Shown here piece by piece: positions 3,256 to 49,952 of a stretch of 64,000 nucleotides of DNA. The position numbers were made by a program, and so were the translations under genes. The stretch spans positions 1 through 64,000 of the IMG/VR virus record IMGVR_UViG_3300017991_000007. One strand, given 5' to 3'. A model generated the notes under the pieces. It saw only the letters and a list, made by a program, of their open reading frames with translations, ran no database searches and was not told the origin of the DNA. This DNA comes from a virus. Position 1 is the first letter of the stretch, and each line of letters starts with the position of its first letter.

Positions 3256-4012
3256 GGAAAAGAAATTTGACGAAAACCCGGAAACCAACCTTACAACTGA
3301 GGATATTGAGGCGTTGCGTCTTGAGGCCAAACGGCTTGCGGACGTGGTAGATACCTCATATTTTGAGCTTGGCGGGGTACTCAATACCATTTCGGAGTCC
3401 GGGTGCTATACCGAGTGGGGGCATGACACTTTCGGGGCATTCGTGGAATCGGATGATTTGGGGTTTGCCCGCCGTAAGGCTTTCTACCTTATGATGATCC
3501 ATGAACAATCTGAAAAGCTTGGGGTAGGAGTTGACGATTTGAGGGGCGTTGGATGGTCTAAGGCTAAAGAGTTCCTACCTATCTGCGAAACCCGGTCTGA
3601 ATTCGACGTGTGGGCTGATAAGGCCAAAAAACTCAGCCTCAAGGATATCACCAAAGAGGTTAAGCTTGCCAAAGGAGCGGACCCGGACGCTGGTAAGGAT
3701 GCTGAGGGCAACAAAATCACAACCAACCCTGAAACCGGTGAAACTTTCCACATTCTGACTTTTTCCCTTGCCGATAAGCAGTACGAAAACGTCTTGCTTG
3801 CTATCCAAAAGGCAAAGGAAATGGGTAAGAGCGAGTCCAAAGAGCATTTGATTGATATGATTGCCTTGGATTTCCTTTCCCACAATGCGACCTTTACCGA
3901 CTTGGCTGAAAAGCTTGCGGATTGGTTCGTACAAGACGGTGATCTGAATGTGCGGATTGCTGAGGCCGTTAATGCCAAGCTACTCAAAGCTGAGGATGAT
4001 GAAACCGAGTAA
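3248..4012 (+). CDS. Conserved phage protein (DUF3102-like helical DNA-binding type)
   Basis: ELGGVL...WGH.TF.AFVE..LGF.RRKA..LM pattern. Confidence 0.55.
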   Translation: MTEEKKFDENPETNLTTEDIEALRLEAKRLADVVDTSYFELGGVLNTISESGCYTEWGHDTFGAFVESDDLGFARRKAFYLMMIHEQSEKLGVGVDDLRGVGWSKAKEFLPICETRSEFDVWADKAKKLSLKDITKEVKLAKGADPDAGKDAEGNKITTNPETGETFHILTFSLADKQYENVLLAIQKAKEMGKSESKEHLIDMIALDFLSHNATFTDLAEKLADWFVQDGDLNVRIAEAVNAKLLKAEDDETE

Positions 4013-4098
4013 AGGTTTGTACTTGATATAGGGGCTTGCGAAAACTCGTAAGCCCTTGTATTATTATAAAAGTACATTTTTTGCTTTGGAGGTCTGCT

Positions 4099-5160
4099 AT
4101 GGCTAAGGGACGTTCTACCGGCGGCGGGGCTGCGGCGGGCGGTGCCGCACCTGAATTACCGGAGCGCACGGTACAAGAATTAGAGAAAGCGTGGGATCAA
4201 TTTCAAGGTCAAGTGGATAACGAGCTTAACTCTTTTGTGCCTGTCATTGAGGCATGGAATCTTGATTCAGCCCGTAAAGCCGCTATTCGGAATCCCATTG
4301 ACGTTACCGATATGAGCGTTGCTGATTCACGCCGGTTGCAGCGTTTCACTAAAACTGATAACCATGACGATGCCATGCGGATGCTTGCCCGTTTGGGCGG
4401 TGTTTCGGACGTTAATACCAATGGTATCAGTATCAATTTCAAGTATGGTGATCCAAATACATTGGTGGTATCGCAAATCGGTAATGGACGTAATATCCAA
4501 TATGACGTGAAATTCAAGGGGGGTCAGCCCTCAATCACTTATCATATGTTTGTGCCAAGACCGGGTGACTCAAACTCAGTTGCCCTTATGGGTACCCGTC
4601 TTACCTCTCTTGCCAATGACTTTGGTATCAAGAGGATCAATATTCCCTCAGCCGCAGGGTCCGGGGGTGGATTGGCGGGCGGTCCAAGGAAAGAAACTGG
4701 TTCTTACACCGGATACAGGCAGTGGTTGGGCGTTGGTGCCATGCCGAAAGGGTGGGGTACTCCCCGTGAACCCGGCGGTAGTTGGCGAAGTGCCGCTACC
4801 TCAGCTATGCGGAATGGCACGTTTGTCCGTTATGGAAACGAAGTTTATAAAGTGCGCCCGGAGGCAGTAAGGCAGCTTTTGGGTAGTGAGAGAAACCCCA
4901 AGTTCTTTTCGCCGCAACAGGTTGCACAAAATCCTATTCTTTTCGGGATTTGGTCGCAGTATGGTAGAGGCGGTCCAGCAACGGTCTTTCTTGGAGGGGC
5001 CAAAACGCAGGACGCTATCAGGAATTATACGAAACTCACAATGGCTCGTAAGATGCCGCAATTTCAGAATTTGGGGTATGGCAGACCGCATCCCCGTGAT
5101 TTACAGATGCCCACTCGTACCGAGTTGAGGCGGGTAGCACCCGATTTACCGAGAGGCTAA
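4099..5160 (+). CDS. MAKG-leader protein with possible GNAT-like domain
   Basis: GGAGG RBS before ATG 4099; begins MAKGRSTGGGAAAGG; A..FGIKRI...AA...TGY..W..VG pattern. Confidence 0.7.
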   Translation: MAKGRSTGGGAAAGGAAPELPERTVQELEKAWDQFQGQVDNELNSFVPVIEAWNLDSARKAAIRNPIDVTDMSVADSRRLQRFTKTDNHDDAMRMLARLGGVSDVNTNGISINFKYGDPNTLVVSQIGNGRNIQYDVKFKGGQPSITYHMFVPRPGDSNSVALMGTRLTSLANDFGIKRINIPSAAGSGGGLAGGPRKETGSYTGYRQWLGVGAMPKGWGTPREPGGSWRSAATSAMRNGTFVRYGNEVYKVRPEAVRQLLGSERNPKFFSPQQVAQNPILFGIWSQYGRGGPATVFLGGAKTQDAIRNYTKLTMARKMPQFQNLGYGRPHPRDLQMPTRTELRRVAPDLPRG

Positions 5161-5172
5161 AGGAGAAAGAAA

Positions 5173-5406
5173 ATGGCAAAGCCCAAAGACGGTAGCGTAA
5201 GGACCGTATCAGGCATGAAACCAGTGAGAGTCCCTAAGCAGGGCAAGAGCAACGCAATGGATTTTGATTTTGATGCCGGTGTTGGAGCCGCAGTCAACGC
5301 TACAAAGCCCAAAATGAGCAAGAAACTGAGGGAGCAAGCAGCGAAAATGGGTAAGACCTCGCAGCGCATCATGCGTATGAATGAGAGGCTTGGAAAGAAA
5401 AAGTAA
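5173..5406 (+). CDS. Small basic protein
   Basis: AGGAG RBS; Lys/Arg-rich, 77 aa. Confidence 0.7.
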   Translation: MAKPKDGSVRTVSGMKPVRVPKQGKSNAMDFDFDAGVGAAVNATKPKMSKKLREQAAKMGKTSQRIMRMNERLGKKK

Positions 5407-5409
5407 TGT

Positions 5410-6582
5410 ATGGGTTTTGAAATCAATCCCAAAAGAGAGGCCAATTACCGGCATACTCTAACTTCCCGTGATTATGAATATATGAAAAACTGTAAGGTCT
5501 GCCCCGTGGTGGACCTTTGCGGTGGTTGGTCCGTTTGGAATGATGCCCGTTGGTGTGTCGGACCCGGCCCGTGGTGCGTTGGTGGGGAACATCCTGACTA
5601 CCCGCACGGTTGCAGGGTGATTTGTTCCCGCTCATCCGAGAAAATTGAGGATGCTACTTACGCTTTAGGACCGAGCAACTATGAGTCCAATCTTGAGTGT
5701 GATCCAGAGAATCGCAAGCACTGTTGGGACGTAGAGGTGGTTCCTGACTTGGGTATCGTAGGAAAGCACAAATGGGAGCCGTGGGATTTTAATTGGCCGG
5801 ACGTTGGTTTTCAGCTTAACGCACATGCCAACTATCAACATCAAGACCTTTATACCATATCCCTCAAGCACCTATTCTATGCGACCCGTCGCACTTGGAG
5901 TCCGCAAAAGGATTTAAGGGAAAGATTCAAAATTCCTGAATCGGCTGCGGTTGCGATTACCAGTACCGTCCATGACGATATCCTTGACGTGCTTGCTCAA
6001 GATATTCCAACGTGGGCTGCGGCGTTGGCTGAGTACGAGGGTGTGACTTTCGTACTTGCTCCCAATTTTTCGGTTTATGACAACTATCCCCGGTTGGACA
6101 ATCTCTTTCATATAAAGCGGAAATTCGTTGCTTTGGAGGCGTTTCAGCGAGAGGGTATGAAGGTTGTACCGGATATCTGCTTTACGACCTCTAGGGATTT
6201 TAAGAATCAGGTTGCTTGGATGCGGGAAAATAAGTGTGAAATGATGCTTATGAACTTTCAGGTTCAAGCCGTTACAACCGATACCCCGCAGTGGAAAGCC
6301 CAAATTAAATCCGCATTAATGGTACAGGATGCCCTTGGTTGGCCGGTACGCATGATTGCCTATGGAGCTACCGGGGGTAAGAGAATGCAGGATATTGCAC
6401 GGCTTTATCCGAATACAACTTTTATTGATTCAAAGGCATATCGACTTGCTGAGTTTCATAAAGATTTGAATTTAGTAGTGGATAAGAGCATTCCGGTTAA
6501 GGATTTGTTTCATATGAATTGCGCCCAAAGTCTTGCCAGAATCCAAGAGGCCAAAGGACAAGCATTGAAATTGGGTGGGTAA
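5410..6582 (+). CDS. DUF4417-like protein with Cys-rich N-terminus
   Basis: APNFSVYDNYP..DN....KR.....FQREG..VVP motif; N-terminal Cys cluster. Confidence 0.7.
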   Translation: MGFEINPKREANYRHTLTSRDYEYMKNCKVCPVVDLCGGWSVWNDARWCVGPGPWCVGGEHPDYPHGCRVICSRSSEKIEDATYALGPSNYESNLECDPENRKHCWDVEVVPDLGIVGKHKWEPWDFNWPDVGFQLNAHANYQHQDLYTISLKHLFYATRRTWSPQKDLRERFKIPESAAVAITSTVHDDILDVLAQDIPTWAAALAEYEGVTFVLAPNFSVYDNYPRLDNLFHIKRKFVALEAFQREGMKVVPDICFTTSRDFKNQVAWMRENKCEMMLMNFQVQAVTTDTPQWKAQIKSALMVQDALGWPVRMIAYGATGGKRMQDIARLYPNTTFIDSKAYRLAEFHKDLNLVVDKSIPVKDLFHMNCAQSLARIQEAKGQALKLGG

Positions 6583-6621
6583 TCTGGTAAAACTGTAAAT
6601 AGGTCAAGCCGGATATGGAGT

Positions 6622-7785
6622 GTGACAATGCCAGAGATTTTAGATAGATGCGTAATGGGTCAAATGGAGAGGGGCGTTTCTCAATCCTCAGCTTTTGCTA
6701 TTTGTACGGCTGCTTTGCAAAGAGCGGGCAAATTGCCCCGTGGTAGGGGTAAGAGTGCCTTTCCTGGGTGGGCAAAAAGGGTTGCTTTACCGGAGCCGGT
6801 TTATTCTGGTATGGAGAATTCTTGGCCCACCCTAACGTCACCGGATCAATCACTTTTGAAAAGTCTTAGGAAAGTCCAGTTGACTGATAGAGAGGGTATC
6901 TTGGGGTCTGCCTTTCTGCATTCCAAAGTCATTGCGCTCAATCCCGAAATGTTGGAGAAAGCGGGCGGTCAACCCCTCTGGTACGGTGCTGTTGCTATCC
7001 ATGAAGCACAACACGCTCTTTACGGCTTTGGGGAGCATGAAGCTACACGGGCAGAACAAAGGTTCCTTGGAAAGTGCTTTGGAGAGTCCAAGATGGATTT
7101 CGATAGACCGGGCATGTTCCTTTCTTGCCGTGCAAGTACGGTTGCTCAAGCCCAAAGGATGAAAGACGTACACGTTAGGCATCGTCGCAATGATTATCAG
7201 TTCCTTGTTTCCTGCGGATATACCCCACGGGTTGCCCGTAAGATCATTGAGGGCGGTAAGAGGGCTTATAAGGCCCGTTTAGCGGCTGCAATGCCTATTC
7301 GATTGATTGCTGCTAAAGACGCTAAGGACTATTTCGAGTTGGATGATACCTATCTACATGCAGTTGTGGATAAGGAGTTTGCCGCCTCTTTGGATGAGTT
7401 CGTTGTGGAAAAAGTTTTTCCGGGCTTTGATATTTATGCCGGTAAGAGCGGTATGAAAGAGCCTGAGAGATTTGGTGGTTTTCGCAGCGTTATGGAGGGG
7501 TATATTCGTCAAGCGGTTGGACGGGGAGTTGGGGTTAGTGAGCGTGGACCTCTTGGAATCGTACCTGTTTTGCGCCGTCATAATTGGGATATTGATGCGT
7601 TGCCGGATGAGTGGCAGCAAAAGAGGGCAGACGCTTTGGCAGAACTTACCGAAAGCCTGAAAACCGAGGGGCTTTACAATGATGAGGGTGATCCTACCGA
7701 GCCTCATTTACTCTGCATTTTGAACGGTTGGACACCGGTACCACATTTGGTATTCTCAGACGTAACCACGTCAATTTCTGGTTGA
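6622..7785 (+). CDS. Hypothetical protein with HExxH zincin-like motif
   Basis: AIHEAQH...E..A; N-terminal SAFAICTA motif. Confidence 0.6.
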   Translation: MTMPEILDRCVMGQMERGVSQSSAFAICTAALQRAGKLPRGRGKSAFPGWAKRVALPEPVYSGMENSWPTLTSPDQSLLKSLRKVQLTDREGILGSAFLHSKVIALNPEMLEKAGGQPLWYGAVAIHEAQHALYGFGEHEATRAEQRFLGKCFGESKMDFDRPGMFLSCRASTVAQAQRMKDVHVRHRRNDYQFLVSCGYTPRVARKIIEGGKRAYKARLAAAMPIRLIAAKDAKDYFELDDTYLHAVVDKEFAASLDEFVVEKVFPGFDIYAGKSGMKEPERFGGFRSVMEGYIRQAVGRGVGVSERGPLGIVPVLRRHNWDIDALPDEWQQKRADALAELTESLKTEGLYNDEGDPTEPHLLCILNGWTPVPHLVFSDVTTSISG

Positions 7786-7850
7786 TCCATTCAAACATTC
7801 TTGCTTAGTCCTTTCAGCTTTGTTATAGTCAGGGGTGAAAAGGAGGCCGT

Positions 7851-8819
7851 ATGAGCAAAATCGACAAGTCCAAAATTGGGGGCTTGAAAGTCAAAGACCC
7901 TAAACGAGCCGCACCTGAGACAGTGGAGGAAAAGGATACCTCTGAGGATACGTCTTGGCTTGATGAGGGTTTCATTCCGGTAGAGGATGGTGTTGGTGAT
8001 TCGGAAATGGCGAATGTACCGGGCAATTATATAGATATTCCCGTTGATGACCTCATTCCGAATTCGTGGAATCCGAATCAAATGAATGATAAGACGTTTG
8101 ATATGCTGGTTCGTCGGATGCGGGAAGTTGGACCACTCAGACCTATTAACGTCATTGCGCTCAAAGATCAACCCGGAAAGTACATGATCATTGACGGGGA
8201 GCATCGTTGGAAAGCCGCAAAAGCCCTTGATTGGCCGTCTGTCTCTGCTCTGGTAATGGAGGGAACGCAGTTTGAGCAAGAGGATGCTCAAAAGTTCCTA
8301 ACCATGCAGCTTAATCAAATAGCTGGTAAGACAAGTCCTGAGAAATTCCTGAAACTCTACAACGAAATGGTAGCGAAGTACGGGGATAAAGCCCTGAAAG
8401 ACCTTATGGGGTTTACCGATTCTACTAAATGGAGGGTTTTGACGAAAGGGATTGCGGACGGCTTACCGGGGGAAATGAAAAAGAAATTCAAAGAGAAAAT
8501 GGAGGGGGCAAACCCGGATGAATTAGGAAATATCCTGCAAGAAATCATGGGGATGTACGGCAATGATATGCGGTATAACTTTATGGTTTTCACTTTCGAG
8601 GATAAAGAGCATGTGTGGATACGCATGAACAAAGATACGCATCAATTGGTCAAGGATTTGGCAGATACTTGTAGGGCTGTTGGTCTGGATATCAACATTC
8701 CTCTCATTGATGCCCTTGACTTTGCGTTGACTCAGTTTACGCCCGCAGATGACGGTTTGGAGTATTCCAATGAGCCAAGTGAGAAAGAGCAAGCTACAAT
8801 TCAAGAGGGCGGGGGATGA
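7851..8819 (+). CDS. ParB/Srx N-terminal domain protein
   Basis: PNSWNPN, PINV, IIDGEHRWKAA. Confidence 0.85.
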   Translation: MSKIDKSKIGGLKVKDPKRAAPETVEEKDTSEDTSWLDEGFIPVEDGVGDSEMANVPGNYIDIPVDDLIPNSWNPNQMNDKTFDMLVRRMREVGPLRPINVIALKDQPGKYMIIDGEHRWKAAKALDWPSVSALVMEGTQFEQEDAQKFLTMQLNQIAGKTSPEKFLKLYNEMVAKYGDKALKDLMGFTDSTKWRVLTKGIADGLPGEMKKKFKEKMEGANPDELGNILQEIMGMYGNDMRYNFMVFTFEDKEHVWIRMNKDTHQLVKDLADTCRAVGLDINIPLIDALDFALTQFTPADDGLEYSNEPSEKEQATIQEGGG

Positions 8820-9633
8820 TCTTAGAGCCTTAGATATTTACCCGGAAATTTACCGCCGGATAATGTCAGGGGAAGCGTCATACTCCGTTGCCAAGTGGTT
8901 AAAGTCCTTGGGGCATTTTGCCGAAATTAAAGAGGAATCTTTGCGTAAGAAGATTGACCGGGCAATTCCGAGTATTCAAAGAGAGGTACCACCCCAAGTC
9001 CAAGCAACTTATCTCCGTAAGAACGAAAACGAAACTGTAGAGCCGGAAATAGTTGAAAAACTTGATGAATCCGCTGAGGATTGTGTTGAAAAACTGCTTG
9101 AGTCGAAAGAAAAGCCGGGGGAAGTTGTCAAGGCTGAGGGGGATGAGGCTACTGAGGTGCAATCGGTTGCACCGGATGTAGTGGATTGTGAGCTTGTGCA
9201 AGACGATTTGCCGCCTAAACCGGTCCCGCCGCCGGTACCCCGGCCTCAGTTAAAAGAGGTTGCACAACTTGAGAAAGCCGCTGATATGCAATGGAGTAGG
9301 ATCAAGATGCTGCATGAAAACGAGAAAAAGATTCAGCATTTGTTCCCGCAGGGTAGGCAGGAATTCTCTGAGTACCGTGCCATGCTGCATACTCTTATCG
9401 ACAAGAAACGTGATCTTGGTATTGCCGGGTATGGACGCAGACAACCCAACATTACTCAGAACAATACCATCATTCAGGGTGACGTAAAGCAAGTTACCGA
9501 GCAAACCATGAATGTCATTGGTGATCCGAAAGCCCGCAGAAAAGTTTTGGATGTTCTCAGGCTTTTTAAGGTCCAAGAGGATGATGAGGATCAAAAACGG
9601 CTTGGTTCTAACGATGTAGCGGCTGAGGCATGA
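8749..9633 (+). CDS. Putative terminase small subunit (start uncertain)
   Basis: Overlaps the TerL start; helical, with an N-terminal HTH-like segment. Confidence 0.5.
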   Translation: MTVWSIPMSQVRKSKLQFKRAGDDLRALDIYPEIYRRIMSGEASYSVAKWLKSLGHFAEIKEESLRKKIDRAIPSIQREVPPQVQATYLRKNENETVEPEIVEKLDESAEDCVEKLLESKEKPGEVVKAEGDEATEVQSVAPDVVDCELVQDDLPPKPVPPPVPRPQLKEVAQLEKAADMQWSRIKMLHENEKKIQHLFPQGRQEFSEYRAMLHTLIDKKRDLGIAGYGRRQPNITQNNTIIQGDVKQVTEQTMNVIGDPKARRKVLDVLRLFKVQEDDEDQKRLGSNDVAAEA

Positions 9634-11459
9634 CGGAATTAAATCAAGATGAACAACGGCTACTTACTTCCCTTTCCCCGGAGGAACAGGACTTAGTTTT
9701 ACGGGTGTTGGAGGGGGATGAGGAAATACTTTCAGCCCTCTATCAAGAGGAATATGAGGAAGTACCAGTAAGCCCGCATAAGTTTTTTACCGACCCGTAC
9801 TATTTGGGGCAGACCGGAGCCGATTTATACCCACAAATCTTGAGTGACTTGGTTGACGTTTTCAGTACGGATTGTGTGGAAATTGTGCTTGGTGGTAGTA
9901 TCGGGTGGGGCAAATCCACGTTTACAGAGTTTGCAATTCTGCGGGTTTTGTATGAGGTTGCTTGCCTGAGAAATCCACAACGCTCTTTTGGTCTTATGGA
10001 GGGGTCCAGTATTGTCCTTATCAACCTTTCCGTTACCCACGCTCAAGCAAAGAAAGCCATTTTTACGGGTTTGCTTGCCAAGGTAAGGCAAAGCCCTTTT
10101 TTCAAAGAGAAATTCCCCTACGACCCGTCTGTTACCTCTGAGTTGCGCTTTCCAAAGAACATTACTATTTTTCCGGGTGCATCAACTGATAACTCTATCT
10201 TGGGGCTAAATGTCATAGGAGGTGCGGTTGACGAATCAAACTTTATGCCGGTAAGGGAGAAAGCCAAGATGCCGGGTATGAGGGGCGCAACCGTTGGTGT
10301 GTACGACAAGGCTGATTCTCTCTACAATGCTATGCTGAGGCGTATGAAATCCCGTTTTATGAAGCGGGGGAAGCTGCCCGGAAAGCTCTTTACCCTTTCC
10401 TCAGCCCAATACCCAAACGATTTTATTGAGCGTAAGACACGTCAAGCCTTGCATGATGACCGTATCTTTGTTCGTAACTACTCCCTTTGGGAAGTCAAGC
10501 CGCCGGGTGAGTATTCGGATGAGACTTTCAAGGTAGAGGTTGGCACGGATTTACAGGGATCACGGATACTCACCGGCAAAGAGCCGCCCAATACGATTGT
10601 CGGTAAGGTCATTGACGTTCCCATAGATTTTATAAAGGATTTTGAAAACGATATTGAGGGGTCCATTCGGGATATTGCCGGTATCTCTACTTTGACCGTT
10701 GACCAATTTATCAAGAATTTCAGAAAAGTAGTGGATTGCATCAATAAGAAAAGGCACCATGTTTTCACGGGGGAAAGCACAACTCTTGAGGATAATCATA
10801 AGTTTTATCGTCGGACCTATCTGAAACCAAATCCAGTTAAACCCAAGACTCGTAAGCCGGTCCTAATCCATAATCCAGAGGCCGTCCGGGTAGCGCACAT
10901 TGACCCTTCTGTATCCGGTGATGCGACGGGTATTGCGGTTGGTCATATCGCTGATATGGTCAAAGTGTCCAGAAAGCAGCCGGACGGTAGAAAAACTGAG
11001 GAATATGCACCTCTCATATTTTATGATTTGTTGCTTCAAATACGCCCGCCTTTGCATCGGGAAATTCAGTTTGACCGTGTTCGTGACGTTCTTTATGAGT
11101 TGATTAAGGATGGTATGAAAATCCAGATAGTTACGATGGACTCTTATCAGTCAGCCGAGCCTTTACAGCAACTTAGGCGTAAGGGATTGATAGCTGATTT
11201 GTTGTCAGTTGACCGGACAACCGACCCTTACGATATCCTCAAGGCCGCATTCTACGAAAACCGGGTGGATATGTACGAGCATAAGATTGCCATGCAAGAG
11301 CTTAGGCAGTTGGAGCATGACCGGCAAAAGAACAAGATTGATCACCCCGAAAGAGGCTCAAAGGACATTGCGGACGCTATGGCGGGGGTGGCATTCACTC
11401 TCACAACTTACGCATCCAGACTCTATAAACCCACTGTTGCCGTCCGAACATTCGGATAA
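9630..11459 (+). CDS. terL: Terminase large subunit
   Basis: Walker A GGSIGWGKS, Walker B AVDE, nuclease motifs HIDPS..GD and KIDHP..GSKDIADA. Confidence 0.92.
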   Translation: MTELNQDEQRLLTSLSPEEQDLVLRVLEGDEEILSALYQEEYEEVPVSPHKFFTDPYYLGQTGADLYPQILSDLVDVFSTDCVEIVLGGSIGWGKSTFTEFAILRVLYEVACLRNPQRSFGLMEGSSIVLINLSVTHAQAKKAIFTGLLAKVRQSPFFKEKFPYDPSVTSELRFPKNITIFPGASTDNSILGLNVIGGAVDESNFMPVREKAKMPGMRGATVGVYDKADSLYNAMLRRMKSRFMKRGKLPGKLFTLSSAQYPNDFIERKTRQALHDDRIFVRNYSLWEVKPPGEYSDETFKVEVGTDLQGSRILTGKEPPNTIVGKVIDVPIDFIKDFENDIEGSIRDIAGISTLTVDQFIKNFRKVVDCINKKRHHVFTGESTTLEDNHKFYRRTYLKPNPVKPKTRKPVLIHNPEAVRVAHIDPSVSGDATGIAVGHIADMVKVSRKQPDGRKTEEYAPLIFYDLLLQIRPPLHREIQFDRVRDVLYELIKDGMKIQIVTMDSYQSAEPLQQLRRKGLIADLLSVDRTTDPYDILKAAFYENRVDMYEHKIAMQELRQLEHDRQKNKIDHPERGSKDIADAMAGVAFTLTTYASRLYKPTVAVRTFG

Positions 11460-11555: not shown

Positions 11556-11981
11556 ATGAGCGAGAATGAAAAGCCAAAACGCAAAAGGTTGCCGTCCCAT
11601 ATCCGGGAACAGCTTATTAGCGAGCTTGGTACTGCCACGGATCAAGCGTTGGCTGATAAGTATTCAAAGCTTGTGGGTTTCACCATCGAAAGGCATACCG
11701 TATTCTATCTGCGAAATAGCCGGGGAATAGCTGCGTTTGCTCCCCGTCCATATACCCCACCCGCTTTCAAAGGTCGGTTTGAGGATGCGTATCCAGAGGT
11801 CAAAGAGCTTTTGGGCAGAGTACCTTTGCTGCATATCGCAAGGCGATACAATGTAAGCCGGTCATGCGTTAGAGCCGCCGCTGAGAGGCTTGGATTGCCC
11901 ACACGGGCGCAAGACTTTGAAAAGATTTTTGAGGATGCCGGGTCAAACCCGTTGCCAGATGAGGCAAGACAAGCCGGATAA
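11556..11981 (+). CDS. HTH-like DNA-binding protein
   Basis: Two HTH-like repeats (LGT.TD..LA; LLG......IARRYNVSRS.V); own TTGACA promoter. Confidence 0.55.
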   Translation: MSENEKPKRKRLPSHIREQLISELGTATDQALADKYSKLVGFTIERHTVFYLRNSRGIAAFAPRPYTPPAFKGRFEDAYPEVKELLGRVPLLHIARRYNVSRSCVRAAAERLGLPTRAQDFEKIFEDAGSNPLPDEARQAG

Positions 11982-12020: not shown

Positions 12021-12048
12021 TGCCCCCTTAACCGGGGGCATATTTTTA
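12021..12048 (+). terminator. Rho-independent terminator
   Basis: TGCCCCC-TTAACC-GGGGGCA then TATTTTT. Confidence 0.6.
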
Positions 12049-27920: not shown

Positions 27921-28589
27921 TTAGGTAATAGTACGTCTGCCTACCCTTGGTCCTTGCGGTGCTGCGGGTGTGGGGGTCGGTGTTCTCAGCGGACCTCTCA
28001 TACCGGCTACCACTTGTCTCATATCTATTGTACCCCATTGTGAGGCGGCTGGAAATGTGCCGTCCCTATGGATATTCCGAATACGGTTATCCAGATTGTT
28101 GACCCGGTTTACTATGCGGTCATTTTGGGCTATGAGCCGTTGCCTTTGGCCCGGTGTGGTACCTCTGGCATTTGCGTTGGCAATAACCCTATCCTGTTGC
28201 TGGATAAGACGGCGGCGTTGGTTGATGAGGGTTTGGGCTTGCCTATCCCGTTGCTGGACTGCCATTTGCGTAATATTACGTCTGGTTTCATGCCCACGCT
28301 GCCTTATTCGTTGATCCGCATTCAGCCTCACACCCTCAATCGCTGTAGCGGCTCTTTGGGAGTCAACTCCCCACCTGAATATCGTTTGGGTGGGTAGTCT
28401 GGTTGCAGCAAGTTCCTTAGCAATCCTTACTTGGTTTTGCTCGCTGAGATTGGAGCGTCCTAAATCCATCATATCAAGACTGCCTAAGAGTCTTTGGTGT
28501 TCCCTAACTATGTTTTCAACGGGAGTTGGTTCTATAATAGCAACAGCCCCGCCGCCCGCTGCGCCTCCACCTGATCTGCCTTTAGCCAT
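27921..28589 (-). CDS. MAKG-leader Arg-rich protein
   Basis: MAKGRSGGGAAGGG; R/Q-rich. Confidence 0.8.
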   Translation of the reverse strand: MAKGRSGGGAAGGGAVAIIEPTPVENIVREHQRLLGSLDMMDLGRSNLSEQNQVRIAKELAATRLPTQTIFRWGVDSQRAATAIEGVRLNADQRIRQRGHETRRNITQMAVQQRDRQAQTLINQRRRLIQQQDRVIANANARGTTPGQRQRLIAQNDRIVNRVNNLDNRIRNIHRDGTFPAASQWGTIDMRQVVAGMRGPLRTPTPTPAAPQGPRVGRRTIT

Positions 28590-29239
28590 TATCTACCTCC
28601 AATAACTCGACTACGTTCTACTGCAAGACTGAGTAATTCAACACGCCGTCGCATATCGTTTTGCGCCCCTGAAAGCCTAAAGTTGCCCTCATTCCGCATG
28701 GTAGCTGCTATTTTGGTTTCGGATGCTCTTGCGGCTGCTAGTCTGCGTTCAAGTTGTGCCGTGGGAAATGTCCGGGCAAGGCCGTCCGCTATTGGTGAAT
28801 TACCCCTGAAAGGCGGTGGAATGCTCCCAATTCTTGTGCTTCTATTCCACATACTATTACTCACACCGTCTGGTATGGTTGTTAGGTTGCGTTGACGGGT
28901 TGACAGTACGCCGATTGTCTCTGCGGGCGGTCTTGCTCTTGATGGTAAAGGTCGTGATCCGCTGCCTTGAAGGGGAGCGGTTGGTGCGTGTTCTACGAGT
29001 ATGCCCCGTTGCCGTGCGCCTTGGAGTGGACCGGACTTGGAGCGTTGTGCGGCAAGCTCTCTGGTTCGCCATTCAGCTACCTGTGTGTTCATGGCTGAGA
29101 TTGCTCCCGGTGTATGTCCGGGGAACGGAAAGCGGGCCATGACTCGGTTTTCCTCATCATTGAGCATTGTGTTAATATCGTTGTTACTTAATGGGGCGGC
29201 TCCCGCTGCGGCTCCCCCTCCCGCTCTGCCTTTAGCCAT
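28589..29239 (-). CDS. MAKG-leader Arg-rich protein
   Basis: MAKGRAGGGAAAG. Confidence 0.8.
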   Translation of the reverse strand: MAKGRAGGGAAAGAAPLSNNDINTMLNDEENRVMARFPFPGHTPGAISAMNTQVAEWRTRELAAQRSKSGPLQGARQRGILVEHAPTAPLQGSGSRPLPSRARPPAETIGVLSTRQRNLTTIPDGVSNSMWNRSTRIGSIPPPFRGNSPIADGLARTFPTAQLERRLAAARASETKIAATMRNEGNFRLSGAQNDMRRRVELLSLAVERSRVIGGR

Positions 29240-29249
29240 ACTTTATCTC

Positions 29250-29765
29250 CTATTCCGGTTGAATGCGCCTTGCCGCAATCCGGTTTACGTCCCTGCGGGG
29301 AGTTGGCGGTGTTGGTGTGGTACCGGCGGGTCTATTTACTCTTTGACCTCTTAGAAACATCGTATCAGGGTTTGCGCCCCGGATTCGGATACCGGCTCTT
29401 TCCATATGCTCAAATTGTCTCTGCGTTGATCCAATGCGGGATATGCCTCCAATTGCGTTGACATATCGAATGCGGGCAACCTCTTGCTGCCCTAAAGCTC
29501 TATCCCGTGCGGCTCCGGTAAGTACGGATGCTCTTTGTTGCCGTCTGCGTATCTCATTTGCCATAGAAACGAGTCTATCAGCACTCCTAGCAGTGGACCG
29601 TAATTGGCGAATCTCATTGACGGCAAAGGCACGGTCAATCAAATCACCCCCGGTAGCATCCTGAATGGCAAGACGTAGGGCATCAATCTCATTATTAAGC
29701 TGTTCGTTGGTGATATCACCCATTCCGGCGGTTCCACCACTCCCGCCCGCACGTCCTTTAGCCAT
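29250..29765 (-). CDS. MAKG-leader Arg-rich protein
   Basis: MAKGRAGGSGG; ends RIAARRIQPE. Confidence 0.8.
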   Translation of the reverse strand: MAKGRAGGSGGTAGMGDITNEQLNNEIDALRLAIQDATGGDLIDRAFAVNEIRQLRSTARSADRLVSMANEIRRRQQRASVLTGAARDRALGQQEVARIRYVNAIGGISRIGSTQRQFEHMERAGIRIRGANPDTMFLRGQRVNRPAGTTPTPPTPRRDVNRIAARRIQPE

Positions 29766-29778
29766 TGGTTACTCCTTT

Positions 29779-30423
29779 TTACGTTGGCTCAATACGCCGT
29801 CTTGCGATTCTTTCAGCTTGTTGCCGGGTAGCTGCCCTTTGAGGTGTTTGGGTGAATAGTCGGTTGGTCGCTGCATTGGCAACGGCTTGTGCTTCCCTGC
29901 GGGATGCTCCTGCGTCCCTTGCAGCCCTGAAAGCGTCCGCTCTTACCACGTCACGGTTTGCTGCGGTGTTAGCACCAAAAGCCCGGAATGTCCGGTTGGC
30001 GGCTCTATCCGCTGCCCGGATAGCAACAGGCGGTGCGCCGGTAGCAGTTCTGGTTTGGGTGCGGCGGTCAAGGGCATTGAGAATGATCCCATTTCGGACT
30101 GAGTGTGACCGGGTAGCTCTCTGCCTCATTGGACCAATTCTTCTACCCGCAACCCTCATATCAACACTTTCTTGGACAAAATCTCTGGAAAGACGGCCAA
30201 TGGTGCGAAGGTTGGCACTGGATATGACGCTATCGGCAAGCCTATCAGCAAGGCGTTGGAGTTGGGTGACGCTGGTTACGTTCCCAAGGTCGTTAAAGCC
30301 TCCAAGTATCTGATTCACACGGTCTGTTGCCCACTCGACATTGCCAAGTCCTGCGGCTCTACCTATTGCAGCCTCAACGCCGCCGCCCCCTGCGGCCCCG
30401 CCGCCTGATCTACCCTTTGCCAT
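29779..30423 (-). CDS. MAKG-leader Arg/Ala-rich protein
   Basis: MAKGRSGGGAAGGGG; ends RIARRRIEPT. Confidence 0.8.
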   Translation of the reverse strand: MAKGRSGGGAAGGGGVEAAIGRAAGLGNVEWATDRVNQILGGFNDLGNVTSVTQLQRLADRLADSVISSANLRTIGRLSRDFVQESVDMRVAGRRIGPMRQRATRSHSVRNGIILNALDRRTQTRTATGAPPVAIRAADRAANRTFRAFGANTAANRDVVRADAFRAARDAGASRREAQAVANAATNRLFTQTPQRAATRQQAERIARRRIEPT

Positions 30424-30453
30424 GACACGCTCCTAGAGGGAGAAAGGTAACTG

Positions 30454-30630
30454 TTATCCAGTGATTCGTCTTGCGGCAATGCGAGCTACGTTAGCTGCGG
30501 TGCGGGCAATCCGTCCAACCCTTTGCCGGGTGGTTGGGGTTGCGGCTCTGGCAGGACGTACACGGACGGTCTTTTCCTTTTCGATAACAACGCCGCCCCC
30601 GGCTCCCCCGCCTTTTGCTCCTTTAGCCAT
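30454..30630 (-). CDS. 58-aa MAKG-leader basic peptide (missed by ORF track)
   Basis: AAGGAG RBS; MAKGAKGGGAGGGVVIEKEKTVRVRPARAATPTTRQRVGRIARTAANVARIAARRITG. Confidence 0.8.
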   Translation of the reverse strand: MAKGAKGGGAGGGVVIEKEKTVRVRPARAATPTTRQRVGRIARTAANVARIAARRITG

Positions 30631-47214: not shown

Positions 47215-47831
47215 TGCAAGTGGCAAAAGAGGTCCAAGTAAAAGCTTACACTCTAGCGGACGGTAATATTGATATGGAGGCTCTTTTTTGGGCTATGTTC
47301 CCGTCCGTTTTTATTCCAGACCGGTCCACTCTTACGGTTTATCTTGAGTCCTTTGGAAAAGTCTTTGATCCTGCGGCGGCAAAAGCAGCCTGTATTAATG
47401 CAGCGGCCTTATTCGATAAGCCCCCAAACATGGCAGGGAGCGGGGAGGAATTCGGTAAGTCTCAGGCTTTGGCAGATATGATCAGAGGTCCGAGCGGGTA
47501 TATGGTTACGGATGCTTTGCAGGATACTTTCAAGACGTGGGCTGAGGGGTTGATTGCGGGTGCTGAAATTCGTATGAGTAATAAGATAACCGACCTCAAA
47601 GCCGTGCTTGATACCAAAGACAATAAAGGCAGACAAGCGATTGAACTCAAGGCGGGCAGTACCCATATTCTCGTACATGCAGACGGATTCTATTTCAACG
47701 GTGAAAAGCGGGATGATCCTTTTGGAGTCTATGACGCTTTTGTAAGTTTTCTTGAGGAATCGGGGCATATTGACCCGGAAAAGGTCTTTGCGGATGCCAC
47801 GAAAACTGAGGATGATGAGGATGAGGAATAG
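47214..47831 (+). CDS. Hypothetical protein
   Basis: Coupled ORF, acidic tail. Confidence 0.6.
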   Translation: MQVAKEVQVKAYTLADGNIDMEALFWAMFPSVFIPDRSTLTVYLESFGKVFDPAAAKAACINAAALFDKPPNMAGSGEEFGKSQALADMIRGPSGYMVTDALQDTFKTWAEGLIAGAEIRMSNKITDLKAVLDTKDNKGRQAIELKAGSTHILVHADGFYFNGEKRDDPFGVYDAFVSFLEESGHIDPEKVFADATKTEDDEDEE

Positions 47832-48213: not shown

Positions 48214-48518
48214 GCCAAAGAAGTAATAACAAGCACCGACTGAGGCAGGGACAGGTTTGCCGAATACTTAATTTTTCATCCCCACGTCTGAGTGTTCTGC
48301 GGAATGAGGGGCGGCTTAGGGAAACGGGGATAGATAAGCAAGGTCGGTATTGGAGTCCGCAAACTATTATGACTTATGTTGAATTTCAAGAAAGGGCCGG
48401 ACGTTTGGAGGATGCAGCCACGTATCGAAAAATGGTTCAACAGAGATTGCGAGAGGAAATGTACGGATTAGAACATCATGCAGCGGCGGGCAGACCCGCA
48501 AAAGGAGATAGCAAATGA
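48210..48518 (+). CDS. HTH (MerR/excisionase-like) protein
   Basis: QVCRIL..S..RL......GRL.......GRYW. Confidence 0.5.
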   Translation: MSQRSNNKHRLRQGQVCRILNFSSPRLSVLRNEGRLRETGIDKQGRYWSPQTIMTYVEFQERAGRLEDAATYRKMVQQRLREEMYGLEHHAAAGRPAKGDSK

Positions 48519-49156
48519 TATTGACAGGCAGCGAGATTGAGAAAGAAGTGAAAGCCGGGAAAATCATTATTGACCCGTTTGACCCGGAATGCTTGGGACC
48601 GAATTCCTATGATATCGCTTTGGGACCAAACATTAAACTTTATGAGTTGGCTCCCCCGGATTCACTCATTCGGCAACGTACCATTATGAGTACGGATGGA
48701 AAACCAATACAAGCAGTGGTACCGTCCGTAATTGACCCCTCAGACCCGAATCATCCTATCTTTGATGTTGTCATGCCTGAGAGTGGGTTGATCCTTTGGC
48801 CGGATAAGCTTTACCTTGCACATACGGTAGAGGCGTTTGGCAGTGATCATTTCGTACCCCGAATTACCGGGCGGTCAAGTTTTGGCCGGTACGGTGTAAA
48901 TGTGCATTGCACTGCGGGCTTTGGTGATCTTGGTTATAAGTCTCAGTGGACCTTGGAAATTACGGTCATGCAGCCTATCCTTTTAAGACCGGGTATGCGT
49001 ATCGCACAAGCGTATTTCTATGAGGTCAAAGGAGAGAAAACCAAGCTTTACCGGGGCAAGTATCTGAATGCCAAAGGTGTGATTGAAAGCCGTGCTTATG
49101 AGGAAATCAAGAAACCGGCTCCCCCGCAGCAACCGGGTAGTCAGCAAAAACATTAA
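48515..49156 (+). CDS. dcd: dCTP deaminase
   Basis: MILT..EI, GPNSYD, GRSSFGR.G, TAGFGD.GY...WTLEI, PGMRIAQ. Confidence 0.92.
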   Translation: MILTGSEIEKEVKAGKIIIDPFDPECLGPNSYDIALGPNIKLYELAPPDSLIRQRTIMSTDGKPIQAVVPSVIDPSDPNHPIFDVVMPESGLILWPDKLYLAHTVEAFGSDHFVPRITGRSSFGRYGVNVHCTAGFGDLGYKSQWTLEITVMQPILLRPGMRIAQAYFYEVKGEKTKLYRGKYLNAKGVIESRAYEEIKKPAPPQQPGSQQKH

Positions 49157-49212
49157 AAAGTGCAAGCGAGTGCATTTTTTACTTGACAAGGCTCTTTTGC
49201 ATTGTTATGGTT
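49155..49212 (+). promoter_or_regulatory. Operator variant plus sigma70 promoter
   Basis: TGCAAGCGAGTGCA 49161-74, TTGACA 49183-88. Confidence 0.7.
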
Positions 49213-49254
49213 AGGCAAGTTGATTGAAACGCAAACTTGCAAAGGGGTATGCAA

Positions 49255-49863
49255 ATGGCGAAAGCTAAGGCAACTAAGAAAAAAGAGGTCACTGAGATTC
49301 CTTTCACTGAGGATATTCAGACTCTTTTTACTGCGACAATGGCTACCGCTGAGGAATTGAAGGGTGGTACGGTTAAACCGAATACTGAGGATGCTCTTTT
49401 CATCCATGCCGGTTACAAGGGCATTGAAAAGGCTGCAAAGGCCGGTATTGATGCAGTACGTCCGATTCTCCAAAAGGCGGCTGAGGATACTGAGGGTGGT
49501 ACTTTTGAGGGTGCCAACGGGAAAGCTACCTATACATGGATTCAGGGTGACGATACCGTGAATTTCACTGAGGCAACTACCGAATTGCTTGAGCAAAAAG
49601 GTGTCTTGGATGATAGCGTGGTTATCCATGCGACTCTCAAACCGGGCGTTGAAGTGGAAAAGATAACCGAAAAAGAGCTTGAGGTTATTCAAAAATACTT
49701 CGATGTAGAGTACACTCTTTCCCATGAAAAAATTGCGGCTCAAGTCACTCTTGAAAAACTCACTCAAGAGGAATTGGACGCAACGGTAGAGCGTGTTCCT
49801 GCAAAGGGTTACGGTAGGCTGAATGTCACACCGGCAAAAGAGGTTAAGAAGTCTTTTTCCTAA
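49255..49863 (+). CDS. Hypothetical protein
   Basis: Monocistronic unit with promoter and terminator (49899-49933). Confidence 0.7.
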   Translation: MAKAKATKKKEVTEIPFTEDIQTLFTATMATAEELKGGTVKPNTEDALFIHAGYKGIEKAAKAGIDAVRPILQKAAEDTEGGTFEGANGKATYTWIQGDDTVNFTEATTELLEQKGVLDDSVVIHATLKPGVEVEKITEKELEVIQKYFDVEYTLSHEKIAAQVTLEKLTQEELDATVERVPAKGYGRLNVTPAKEVKKSFS

Positions 49864-49952
49864 GCCTCTAAGACACACCGGATTGATAAACTCTTTATAA
49901 GACGTAAGGGTGTAATGCCCTTGCGTCTTTTTTGCTTTGAGGGATAGGTGCT

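Follow-up and report, generated by a model that had tools for sequence, protein, structure and literature searches.

A DUF4417-family protein with a transglycosylase-like predicted fold is encoded beside proteins with Gly-rich N-terminal tags just 5' of phage terminase genes

Why would a phage keep a glycine-tagged protein, a cysteine-rich DUF4417-family protein, a HExxH protein and a ParB-like protein next to its terminase genes? We addressed this question in a window of 64,000 nucleotides from an uncultivated 107-kb phage, where positions 4099–11459 form a single compact unit that runs into the DNA-packaging genes (Table 1). The gene order proposed in an earlier note was borne out, with every gene lying where that note had placed it: Gly-tagged protein, small basic ORF, Cys-rich DUF4417 protein, HExxH protein, ParB-N protein, putative small terminase subunit (TerS) and large terminase subunit (TerL). 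As an answer, we propose an enzyme-plus-tag system that would process or load DNA-associated cargo at packaging. We give this interpretation about an even chance, and the relation between enzyme and tag in it is drawn from gene neighbourhood.

Table 1. Position and description of the features discussed in the text.
Feature	Position	Strand	Description
Intergenic region	4010–4098	+	GC hairpin, AT-rich stretch, promoter-like site (4036–4064) and GGAGG ribosome-binding site, predicted from sequence
Tagged protein	4099–5160	+	353 aa, pI 10.2; N-terminal Gly/Ala-rich tag of ~17 residues (4099–4149), fast-evolving body
Small Lys-rich ORF	5173–5406	+	77 aa, candidate coding
DUF4417-family protein	5410–6582	+	Cys-rich N-terminal metal module, ~residues 28–72; TIM barrel, ~residues 123–387
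HExxH protein	6628–7785 (alternative start 6622)	+	Zincin-like domain, ~residues 45–222; clade-specific C-terminal extension
ParB/Srx-fold N-terminal NTPase-type domain protein	7851–8819	+	Motif DGEHR-WKAA
Putative small terminase subunit	8749–9633	+	Assigned by position only; true start maybe 3' of the ParB overlap
Large terminase subunit	9630–11459	+	P-loop ATPase and nuclease; assigned by structural match and synteny
Conserved protein closing the unit	11556–11981	+	141 aa
Terminator-like hairpin	12021–12040		3' of the 141-aa gene
Array of five more tagged genes	27921–30630	−	27921–28589, 28589–29239, 29250–29765, 29779–30423, 30454–30630
Protein between portal and capsid genes	54330–56762	+	810 aa

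Neither terminase subunit was recognized by family searches in Pfam, PHROG and NCBIfam, the putative TerS matching no family and TerL no terminase. The putative TerS has a 34% identical homologue in the same place in the related genome G001. TerL was matched in the Atlas to viral, intein-bearing MJ0330_N P-loop clusters (0.99, TM 0.85), and its homologues in G001, G003 and G005 are 42–65% identical. In G003 and L127 the TerL homologue is located directly 5' of the portal gene, and portal and capsid genes come after it in the relatives.

The protein that opens the unit starts with MAKGR-ST-GGG, followed by an Ala/Gly run, and found no match in Pfam, PHROG or NCBIfam; its Atlas model reaches TM 0.46–0.49 to GNAT/FemX-type folds, which we take as a lead only. 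Its tag is common to six ORFs of the genome, five of which lie in tandem and encode Arg-rich, mostly Lys-poor proteins with a pI of 11.7–12. Since this 27.9–30.6 kb array bears the same tag, its earlier reading as extra cargo is consistent with our data. Across the clade, the 25 tagged proteins have a pI of 10–12, 11–17% Arg and mostly <2% Lys, and all of them carry Ala or Gly at residue 2, followed by a Gly/Ala run of 13–17 residues. In the positional orthologue in G001 the tag is retained while the rest of the protein can scarcely be aligned (E 0.11), and tag residues are conserved while synonymous codons vary. Our observations show that it is the peptide sequence of the tag that is conserved, across proteins that change rapidly and are otherwise unrelated. 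The tag also occurs well above chance expectation, with ~6 tag-like starts per 100 kb in the clade versus ~0.1–0.4 per 100 kb in control DNA (unselected starts: ~1 across 271 kb from other phages, ~1 across 755 kb from bacteria).

The DUF4417 protein scores 28.4 bits against PF14386, 0.5 under the cut-off of 28.9, and aligns to profile positions 63–118 only; 68 of 100 relatives pass the Pfam threshold. With hhalign, it was aligned to DUF4417 proteins of cultured phages, themselves at E 1e-59 to 1e-64 on PF14386, with probabilities of 98.1% and 98.4% (E 1e-13 and 1e-14), and the core motif P-N-F-S-x-Y-x-N-x-P-R is present at residues 218–228. Judged by sequence comparison, the 5410–6582 product is homologous to bona fide DUF4417 proteins despite its sub-threshold Pfam score. 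Its N-terminal module holds 7–8 conserved Cys, and Asp189 and Asp263 are nearly invariant.

The fold prediction suggested in the earlier note for this protein yielded a transglycosylase-like barrel (pLDDT 94.7). Foldseek alone put generic barrels at the top, and in a structure search of 48,161 chains the top four were all members of the TGT family, namely ArcTGT (Z 17.0, 253 residues aligned), QTRT2 (Z 15.2), TGT (Z 14.6) and DpdA (Z 14.2, 242 residues); Cap10 followed with Z 13.2, and unrelated barrels gave Z ≤13.9 over ≤~200 residues. The predicted model thus shows a TIM barrel with TGT-type elaborations, closest to the base-exchanging tRNA/DNA guanine transglycosylases. At the sequence level we detected no similarity to a four-sequence bacterial TGT profile (hhalign probability 0.35%), and the canonical TGT family PF01702 had no match anywhere in five clade genomes.

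The ParB-N protein exceeds the cut-off of ParB_N (37.5 bits vs 26.3), with the nucleotide-binding G-x-x-R-x-x-A box read as D-G-E-H-R-W-K-A-A, and matches PHROG 26387 (7e-47) and Noc/ParB structures (E 3e-9). The protein does not fit a canonical partition ParB: only the N-terminal domain is matched, with no partition-type HTH or dimerisation domain detected, TIGR00180 stays below its cut-off (39 vs 58.45) and no ParA was found among the genes examined. PHROG 940 covers ParB-N plus DUF4417, we confirmed a ParB-DUF4417 fusion protein in Streptococcus phage IPP14, and such fusions have been reported to be enriched in phages and prophages (bioRxiv 10.1101/2025.10.10.680097). The fusions support the view that ParB is the partner of DUF4417. 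As far as the passages of that report naming DUF4417 go, the fusions combine the same ParB-CTPase fold and DUF4417 domains, whereas here these are separate genes with the HExxH gene between them and DUF4417 has an extra Cys-rich module; the same passages assign no function to DUF4417 and do not mention tagged neighbours.

In the HExxH protein, HEAQH at residues 127–131 is invariant in 7 homologues, the invariant residues being H127, E128, H131, E138 and E145, and shorter homologues (170–235 aa) adjoin DUF4417 in G003, G004 and G005. We found no Pfam or PDB sequence match. The model is confident for residues 45–222 only, and its best fold matches are HExxH domains with Z 7.8 and 7.6 over ~145–150 residues, a level at which the resemblance may be confined to the overall arrangement; Foldseek related it to minigluzincins with a probability of 0.75. 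The predicted arrangement, an invariant HExxH on a helix following a small sheet, is like that of minigluzincins (selecase, abylysin) and of alpha-ketoglutarate-dependent HEXXH RiPP enzymes (PMC12636437; PDB 8S5F, 22OB), which differ from the phage protein in that it has no sequence-family match.

The association of DUF4417 with tagged proteins extends well beyond this phage. In six phage-family lineages (G000, which is this phage, G001, G003, G004, G005 and G002, the last with a borderline tag), tagged ORFs are found at most two genes away from DUF4417, with variation in gene order and in the wording of the tag (MAKGR, MGKGR, MGRGG, MGDAR/MGDGK). We also sampled five cultured phages, and in four of them (Mycobacterium phage Tubs, Gordonia phage Rosalind, Streptococcus phage A25 and Dorea phage DO134P1), whose DUF4417 genes have Pfam E values of 1e-59 to 1e-70, the ORF right after DUF4417 starts with MGGRG and lies 5' of TerS/TerL. 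In the fifth, IPP14, the following ORF as annotated has a GGGRG motif only at 66 codons from its start. The co-occurrence of DUF4417 with Gly-rich starts such as MGGRG, which the earlier note had put forward, is upheld by six lineages and four of the five sampled cultured phages. These data show that DUF4417 homologues adjoin ORFs with short Gly-rich starts in phages of widely differing kinds, almost always immediately 5' of the terminase. The pairing is not universal: no tagged neighbours were seen at 49 loci of a bacterial DUF4417 subfamily or at two other viral DUF4417 loci, and at one viral locus DUF4417 stands, with no tag, among a DNA methyltransferase, a nucleoside deoxyribosyltransferase-like protein and an amidoligase. 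The system at 4099–11459 is a divergent, multi-cargo variant of this pairing with an added HExxH partner. In a literature search, we could not find a published description of the enzyme-plus-tag pairing. Its recurrence in unrelated cultured phages, together with this absence from print, points to an as yet undescribed handling of proteins that travel with phage DNA.

Known systems offer parallels to parts of the module. Dpd 7-deazaguanine DNA modification in Salmonella Montevideo likewise brings together on DNA a TGT-fold barrel, DpdA, and a ParB-fold NTPase, its partner DpdB having been described as ParB-like (PMC10164549; PDB 7UI4); in phages, ParB adjoins DUF4417, as here, or is fused to it, as elsewhere. 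On the other hand, DUF4417 has no sequence similarity to DpdA/TGT and carries an N-terminal Cys cluster, replacing the C-terminal zinc site of TGT. Moreover, no preQ0 pathway gene was found in the clade genomes searched, and Dpd itself lacks partner proteins with a tag.

In type IV CBASS and Qat, a Gly-rich N-terminal tail serves as a reactive handle in a TGT-like pocket (bioRxiv 10.1101/2025.04.06.647259; PMC13376578). The tagged proteins are like the substrates CdnD and QatB in that, after Met removal, they would expose a small residue 2 and a flexible Gly-rich N-terminal tail; the TGT-like Cap10 of type IV CBASS, which holds the tail in its base pocket, is the Z 13.2 match of our DUF4417 model. 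Cap9/Cap10/CdnD, which carries out N-terminal deazaguanylation, and QatB/QatC are bacterial defence systems with a single substrate protein and a QueC-family ligase, whereas the phage module is encoded next to the terminase and has many swappable substrates. We did not find QueC: PF06508 was absent from G000, G001, G003, G004 and G005, whereas all 14 control genomes gave a match, and none of the 30 larger proteins scanned with Pfam is a QueC-family enzyme. CBASS-type chemistry would therefore have to proceed here without its activating enzyme.

Considering these parallels, the block may represent the opening of the phage late DNA-packaging unit and house a system in which a DUF4417 enzyme is paired with N-terminal tags. 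Upon removal of Met1, the flexible tag would enter the DUF4417 pocket, and the ParB-type NTPase would place DUF4417 on DNA. DUF4417 could then process or anchor the tagged proteins, here arginine-rich DNA binders, which would travel with the genome into the capsid and then into the next host. The HExxH zincin-like protein would be an accessory added in this clade, perhaps trimming or releasing the tag. A bolder version, which we regard as unlikely, is that a transglycosylase-type DUF4417, loaded on DNA by ParB, joins the alpha-amine of the tag to phage DNA, directly or via a base-like adduct, with HExxH as the releasing or trimming peptidase. If this were true, the cargo, arginine-rich DNA binders in this phage and toxins in others, would be covalently tethered to the genome, packaged and injected with it.

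One may instead suppose that two separate things share one late operon, an alternative that we hold to be somewhat improbable. DUF4417 and ParB would then constitute a DpdA/DpdB-like base-modification enzyme or a DNA enzyme linked to packaging, in either case without contact with the tag, and the tag would be a capsid-targeting or scaffold-binding signal of the T4 kind, which the machinery of head assembly would recognize and which the prohead protease or the HExxH peptidase might cleave off. The internal proteins of T4 (IPI–III, Alt) carry a capsid-targeting sequence, a short N-terminal peptide on unrelated, fast-evolving, basic proteins, some of them arrayed; it is not Gly-rich, the prohead protease cuts after Glu, and we know of no DUF4417-type partner for it. 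Our tagged proteins, known here from genes alone, resemble them as polycationic, hypervariable proteins with a common N-terminal peptide. The TGT-like fold and ParB partner of DUF4417, and the viral locus where it stands untagged among DNA-modification genes, would also suit separate systems, as would the distance of ~21 kb between most tagged genes and DUF4417 in this phage; most tagged genes of the G001/G006 species, too, lie apart from DUF4417. A probable protease domain lies between the portal and capsid genes, where the conserved N-terminal 180 residues of the 810-aa protein, with His62 and Ser122 invariant, may form a candidate prohead protease domain, but this assignment is sub-threshold (Peptidase_S78 E 0.076 and DUF2213 E 0.071, both in one of five members). 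Likewise, Glu occurs ≤5 residues past the tag end in 14 of the 25 proteins against ~8–9 expected, a weak pattern. Tag and DUF4417, moreover, recur side by side, often with overlapping stop and start codons, in phages otherwise without detectable common features, so that co-timing alone is no explanation, and the tag stays GGRG-like though capsid and portal families differ among these phages.

It is also conceivable, but quite doubtful, that the tag is a translation-initiation feature or a leader read by a non-phage factor such as host export or quality control, with DUF4417 as its neighbour for unrelated reasons, for example a moron hot spot before the terminase. Accessory genes commonly sit 5' of the terminase, and some tagged proteins elsewhere are toxin-like, as exemplified by Rosalind gp2, annotated as an ADP-ribosyltransferase. 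Codon-level variation nevertheless speaks against an RNA or DNA signal, no signal-peptide-like hydrophobic core was seen after the tag, and tag and enzyme family go together in Actinobacteria and Firmicutes as well as in this uncultivated clade. That the common start is a functionless remnant of gene duplication within the array seems hardly credible. The tandem arrangement of five of the six tagged genes, three of which also share a C-terminal Arg-rich motif, would agree with it, but the bodies cannot be aligned while the tag persists in differing codons, tags of this kind begin unrelated proteins of phages that are themselves unrelated, and tag-like starts are 15–40 times rarer in control DNA.

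Two small genes complete the unit. The 77-aa ORF had no family match in Pfam and PHROG searches, and tblastn in the relatives, including the nearest one, gave no match. The 141-aa product, negative in a Pfam search, has a 60% identical homologue located 3' of TerL in G001.

We found that DUF4417 genes and ORFs with a short Gly-rich N-terminal start (the tag) are neighbours well beyond the phage family of the present genome, G000, and we conclude that this association is real and general, yet not universal. The earlier note had pointed to such a link, and five further family lineages and four of five cultured phages bear it out. The latter, from different hosts, were opened from 312 records with DUF4417-like matches in the cultured-phage collection, many of them mycobacteriophages, retrieved with a remote member of the DUF4417 family as query. 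In Mycobacterium phage Tubs, Gordonia phage Rosalind, Streptococcus phage A25 and Dorea phage DO134P1, a genuine DUF4417 gene is immediately followed by an ORF that starts with MGGRG and lies just upstream of the terminase genes. Two of the four records seem to place the start of this ORF too far downstream, which hides the tag: an in-frame ATG 237 nt upstream in Rosalind gp2, and 27 nt upstream in A25_23, gives an MGGRG start overlapping the end of the DUF4417 gene. The Rosalind protein is annotated as an ADP-ribosyltransferase. The fifth phage, Streptococcus phage IPP14, encodes a ParB-DUF4417 fusion; GGGRG occurs there 66 codons into the following ORF as annotated.

The five further lineages (G001 to G005), recovered by database and contig searches, share with G000 42-65% identity in TerL, 44-64% in the capsid protein and 27-60% in DUF4417. 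Each has tagged ORFs near DUF4417, in varying wording and order. A MAGKGR-tagged gene lies directly upstream of DUF4417 in G001, which also has an array of MGKGR genes; six MGRGG genes are interleaved with DUF4417, HExxH and ParB in G005; four MGDAR/MGDGK genes stand between DUF4417 and TerL in G003; and two tagged genes follow ParB in G004. In G002, an ORF between DUF4417 and ParB has a good ribosome-binding site and a Gly-rich start that is borderline.

On the other hand, no tagged neighbours were found in two viral loci (L070 and L071) and in 49 bacterial loci (L072-L120); genomic contexts were read for a minority of the 549 database relatives of DUF4417. In the bacterial loci, mostly from Alphaproteobacteria and Planctomycetota, a Cys-rich DUF4417 subfamily occupies a conserved four-gene cassette. 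Upstream are a ~190-aa protein (47 of 49 loci) and a ~118-aa protein (37 of 49); downstream is a 250-290-aa protein whose counterpart in L071 has a weak HATPase_c_2 match. Some loci also have OLD-type ATPase or HipA-like genes close by, and PADLOC returned no match for these loci. This cassette may represent a separate, undescribed system. In L070, DUF4417 is found amid a DNA methyltransferase, a nucleoside 2-deoxyribosyltransferase-like protein and a SWIM plus Amidoligase_2 protein, together with an ORF with a Met-Cys start that by eye resembles an Ntn-type amidotransferase; judged by its genes, this tag-less context looks like one of DNA hypermodification. In the passages of the literature that name DUF4417, no function is assigned to it and the pairing is not described.

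In G000, six proteins have MAKG starts (MAKGR in five, MAKGA in one) followed by a Gly/Ala run; one is encoded at the head of the packaging block and five in a distant array. Their tag codons vary freely while the residues are constant, and the upstream DNA varies too; therefore, selection acts on the peptide. Residue 2 is Ala or Gly in all 25 tagged proteins of G000 and its relatives, and these are Arg-rich and strongly basic (pI 10-12 in 23), most of them being nearly Lys-free. Counted by one fixed rule, one unselected tag-like start occurred in 271 kb of other phage loci and one in 755 kb of bacterial loci. Three array proteins have a common C-terminal Arg-rich motif, R-I-A-(A/R)-R-R-I, and some cargo proteins are therefore conserved at both ends. 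A cleavage motif with Glu following the tag had too weak a signal to be claimed. The Atlas model of the body of the first tagged protein (353 aa in all) shows resemblance to GNAT/FemX-type acyltransferase folds as well as to a Mu-F-linked viral cluster; with TM scores of 0.46-0.49, below 0.5, an internal-protein reading is a lead only, too weak to name.

Within the packaging block, every gene listed in the earlier note was found at its place. The block begins after a hairpin and a promoter-like site, and its junctions are short or overlapping through TerL to a conserved 141-aa gene, where a terminator-like hairpin closes the unit. The ParB-N assignment is solid, while that of the putative TerS comes from position alone. 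TerL has no curated family match; it belongs to viral, intein-bearing P-loop clusters and precedes the portal gene in relatives. The 77-aa ORF is not conserved in relatives. PADLOC detected no defence-system match. The HExxH motif does not vary among seven homologues, and the confident fold is limited to residues 45-222, where a small sheet is predicted to lead into the HExxH helix and then into a helix with two invariant Glu. Its best structural matches are HExxH domains and minigluzincins, with scores that prove little. Since this protein adjoins DUF4417 in five of the six family lineages and none was seen in the sampled cultured phages, it is a clade-specific accessory.

Coordinates of the features discussed
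Feature	Sequence	Position	Strand
Hairpin and promoter-like site	window	~4030-4064	
First tagged gene	window	4099-5160	
Terminator-like hairpin	window	12021-12040	
Array of five tagged genes	window	27.9-30.6 kb	opposite to block
Array proteins with C-terminal motif (ends 29250, 29779, 30454)	window	29250-30630	-
dCTP-deaminase-like protein and ribonucleotide reductase	window	48515-51932	
810-aa protein, first 180 residues	window	54330-54929	
Sir2-family protein	G000	104220-104957	
TerL homologue	G002, L003	4001-7531	
Tagged protein in small-terminase position	G003, L054	7237-7785 (record 47237-47785)	
gp2	Rosalind, L134, NC_030694.1	1245-2132	
A25_23	A25, L133	2980-3390	
DUF4417 locus without tag	L070, IMGVR_UViG_3300031463_000450	6459-11458	

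The DUF4417 protein of the window falls 0.5 bit below the Pfam threshold. What secures the assignment is that 68 of 100 relatives do pass it and that hhalign aligned the family of this protein with undoubted DUF4417 proteins at 98% probability. The fold prediction proposed in the earlier note, run with a 100-sequence alignment in AlphaFold, gave a model with a pLDDT of 94.7, and transglycosylases headed the exhaustive structural comparison: ArcTGT (Z 17.0 over 253 aligned residues), QTRT2 (15.2), bacterial TGT (14.6) and DpdA, the DNA preQ0 insertase (14.2). Cap10 of CBASS scored 13.2, and other TIM barrels reached at most 13.9 over shorter alignments. Since Foldseek alone returned generic barrels and profile comparison by hhalign found no similarity between DUF4417 and TGT, the relation is at the level of the fold, where the margin is some 3 Z units. 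The seven or eight conserved N-terminal Cys residues suggest a metal site. A radical-SAM reading of this cluster was not adopted: the spacing is variable (C-x3-C-x2-C in relatives, C-x6-C-x11-C-x3-C in the window), the cluster is not part of the barrel, and radical-SAM enzymes are missing from the 50 best fold matches. When DUF4417, supplied as a 100-row alignment, was co-folded with the stretch from residue 2 to 46 of the first tagged protein, the score was 0.00 in a run without controls, which is uninformative either way.

Two known types of system offer a comparison. In Dpd, DpdA needs DpdB, a ParB-fold ATPase; in G000 a ParB gene adjoins DUF4417, and in other phages the two are fused. Type IV CBASS joins a deazaguanine to Gly2 of CdnD, whose Gly-rich N-terminus sits in the pocket of the TGT-like protein Cap10, and QatB of the Qat system behaves similarly. 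We see about an even chance that DUF4417 and the tag form one system, in which DUF4417 would process or anchor swappable tagged proteins during packaging and ParB would be its DNA-side partner. The main rival, to us rather unlikely, is that DUF4417 and ParB act as a DNA enzyme, while the tag directs proteins to the capsid as a signal that the head machinery recognises. The boldest idea of the earlier note, covalent tethering of cargo to DNA, would fit the fold and these precedents; the QueC-type activating enzyme for such tethering is absent by Pfam from the clade genomes searched, and we hold the idea to be quite improbable. A 7-deazaguanine pathway of the phage's own was dropped because neither QueC nor TGT had a Pfam match in the clade.

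If DUF4417 does read or modify the tag, this would be an unrecognised route, common to many phages, by which virions or injected DNA are supplied with exchangeable proteins, for example polycations that coat DNA, ADP-ribosyltransferases and further effectors. It would also explain what a widespread, uncharacterised domain and its fusions with ParB do, and would extend to phages the N-terminal nucleobase-protein conjugation chemistry recently found in bacterial defence. The window is a divergent case, with up to six cargo genes, a putative metal-binding DUF4417 and an extra HExxH partner, and its divergence helps to define the essential parts of such a system.

The whole record, of which the window is the first 64 kb, spans 106,648 bp, has direct terminal repeats and is rated complete. 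Elsewhere it encodes a portal, an HK97-type capsid protein, tail proteins and a replication set of DnaB, primase, family A polymerase, RecA, ribonucleotide reductase (RNR) and a dCTP-deaminase-like protein. In the cultured-phage collection, neither the block DNA, nor the DUF4417 protein by tblastn, nor the queries P0003 and P0049 found a match, and close-relative scans of viral and metagenome contigs yielded a handful of loci. By sequence, no PDB entry matched DUF4417, HExxH, TerL or the N-terminal domain of the 810-aa protein.

The dCTP-deaminase-like gene adjoins the RNR gene, which is of B12 type, and a Sir2-family gene lies close to the right end; these nucleotide- or NAD-related genes might bear on DNA modification or counter-defence. 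In G003, a 182-aa tagged protein occupies the small-terminase position, with a stop codon that overlaps the start of TerL; that locus yielded no homologue of the putative TerS of the window. The TerL homologue of G002, at 1176 aa, probably carries an intein, as the Atlas neighbours of TerL often do. Finally, the first 180 residues of the 810-aa protein, encoded between the portal and capsid genes, are kept in all relatives with His62 and Ser122 invariant; they have sub-threshold matches to Peptidase_S78 and DUF2213, and the protein probably joins a prohead protease to a scaffold-like region.
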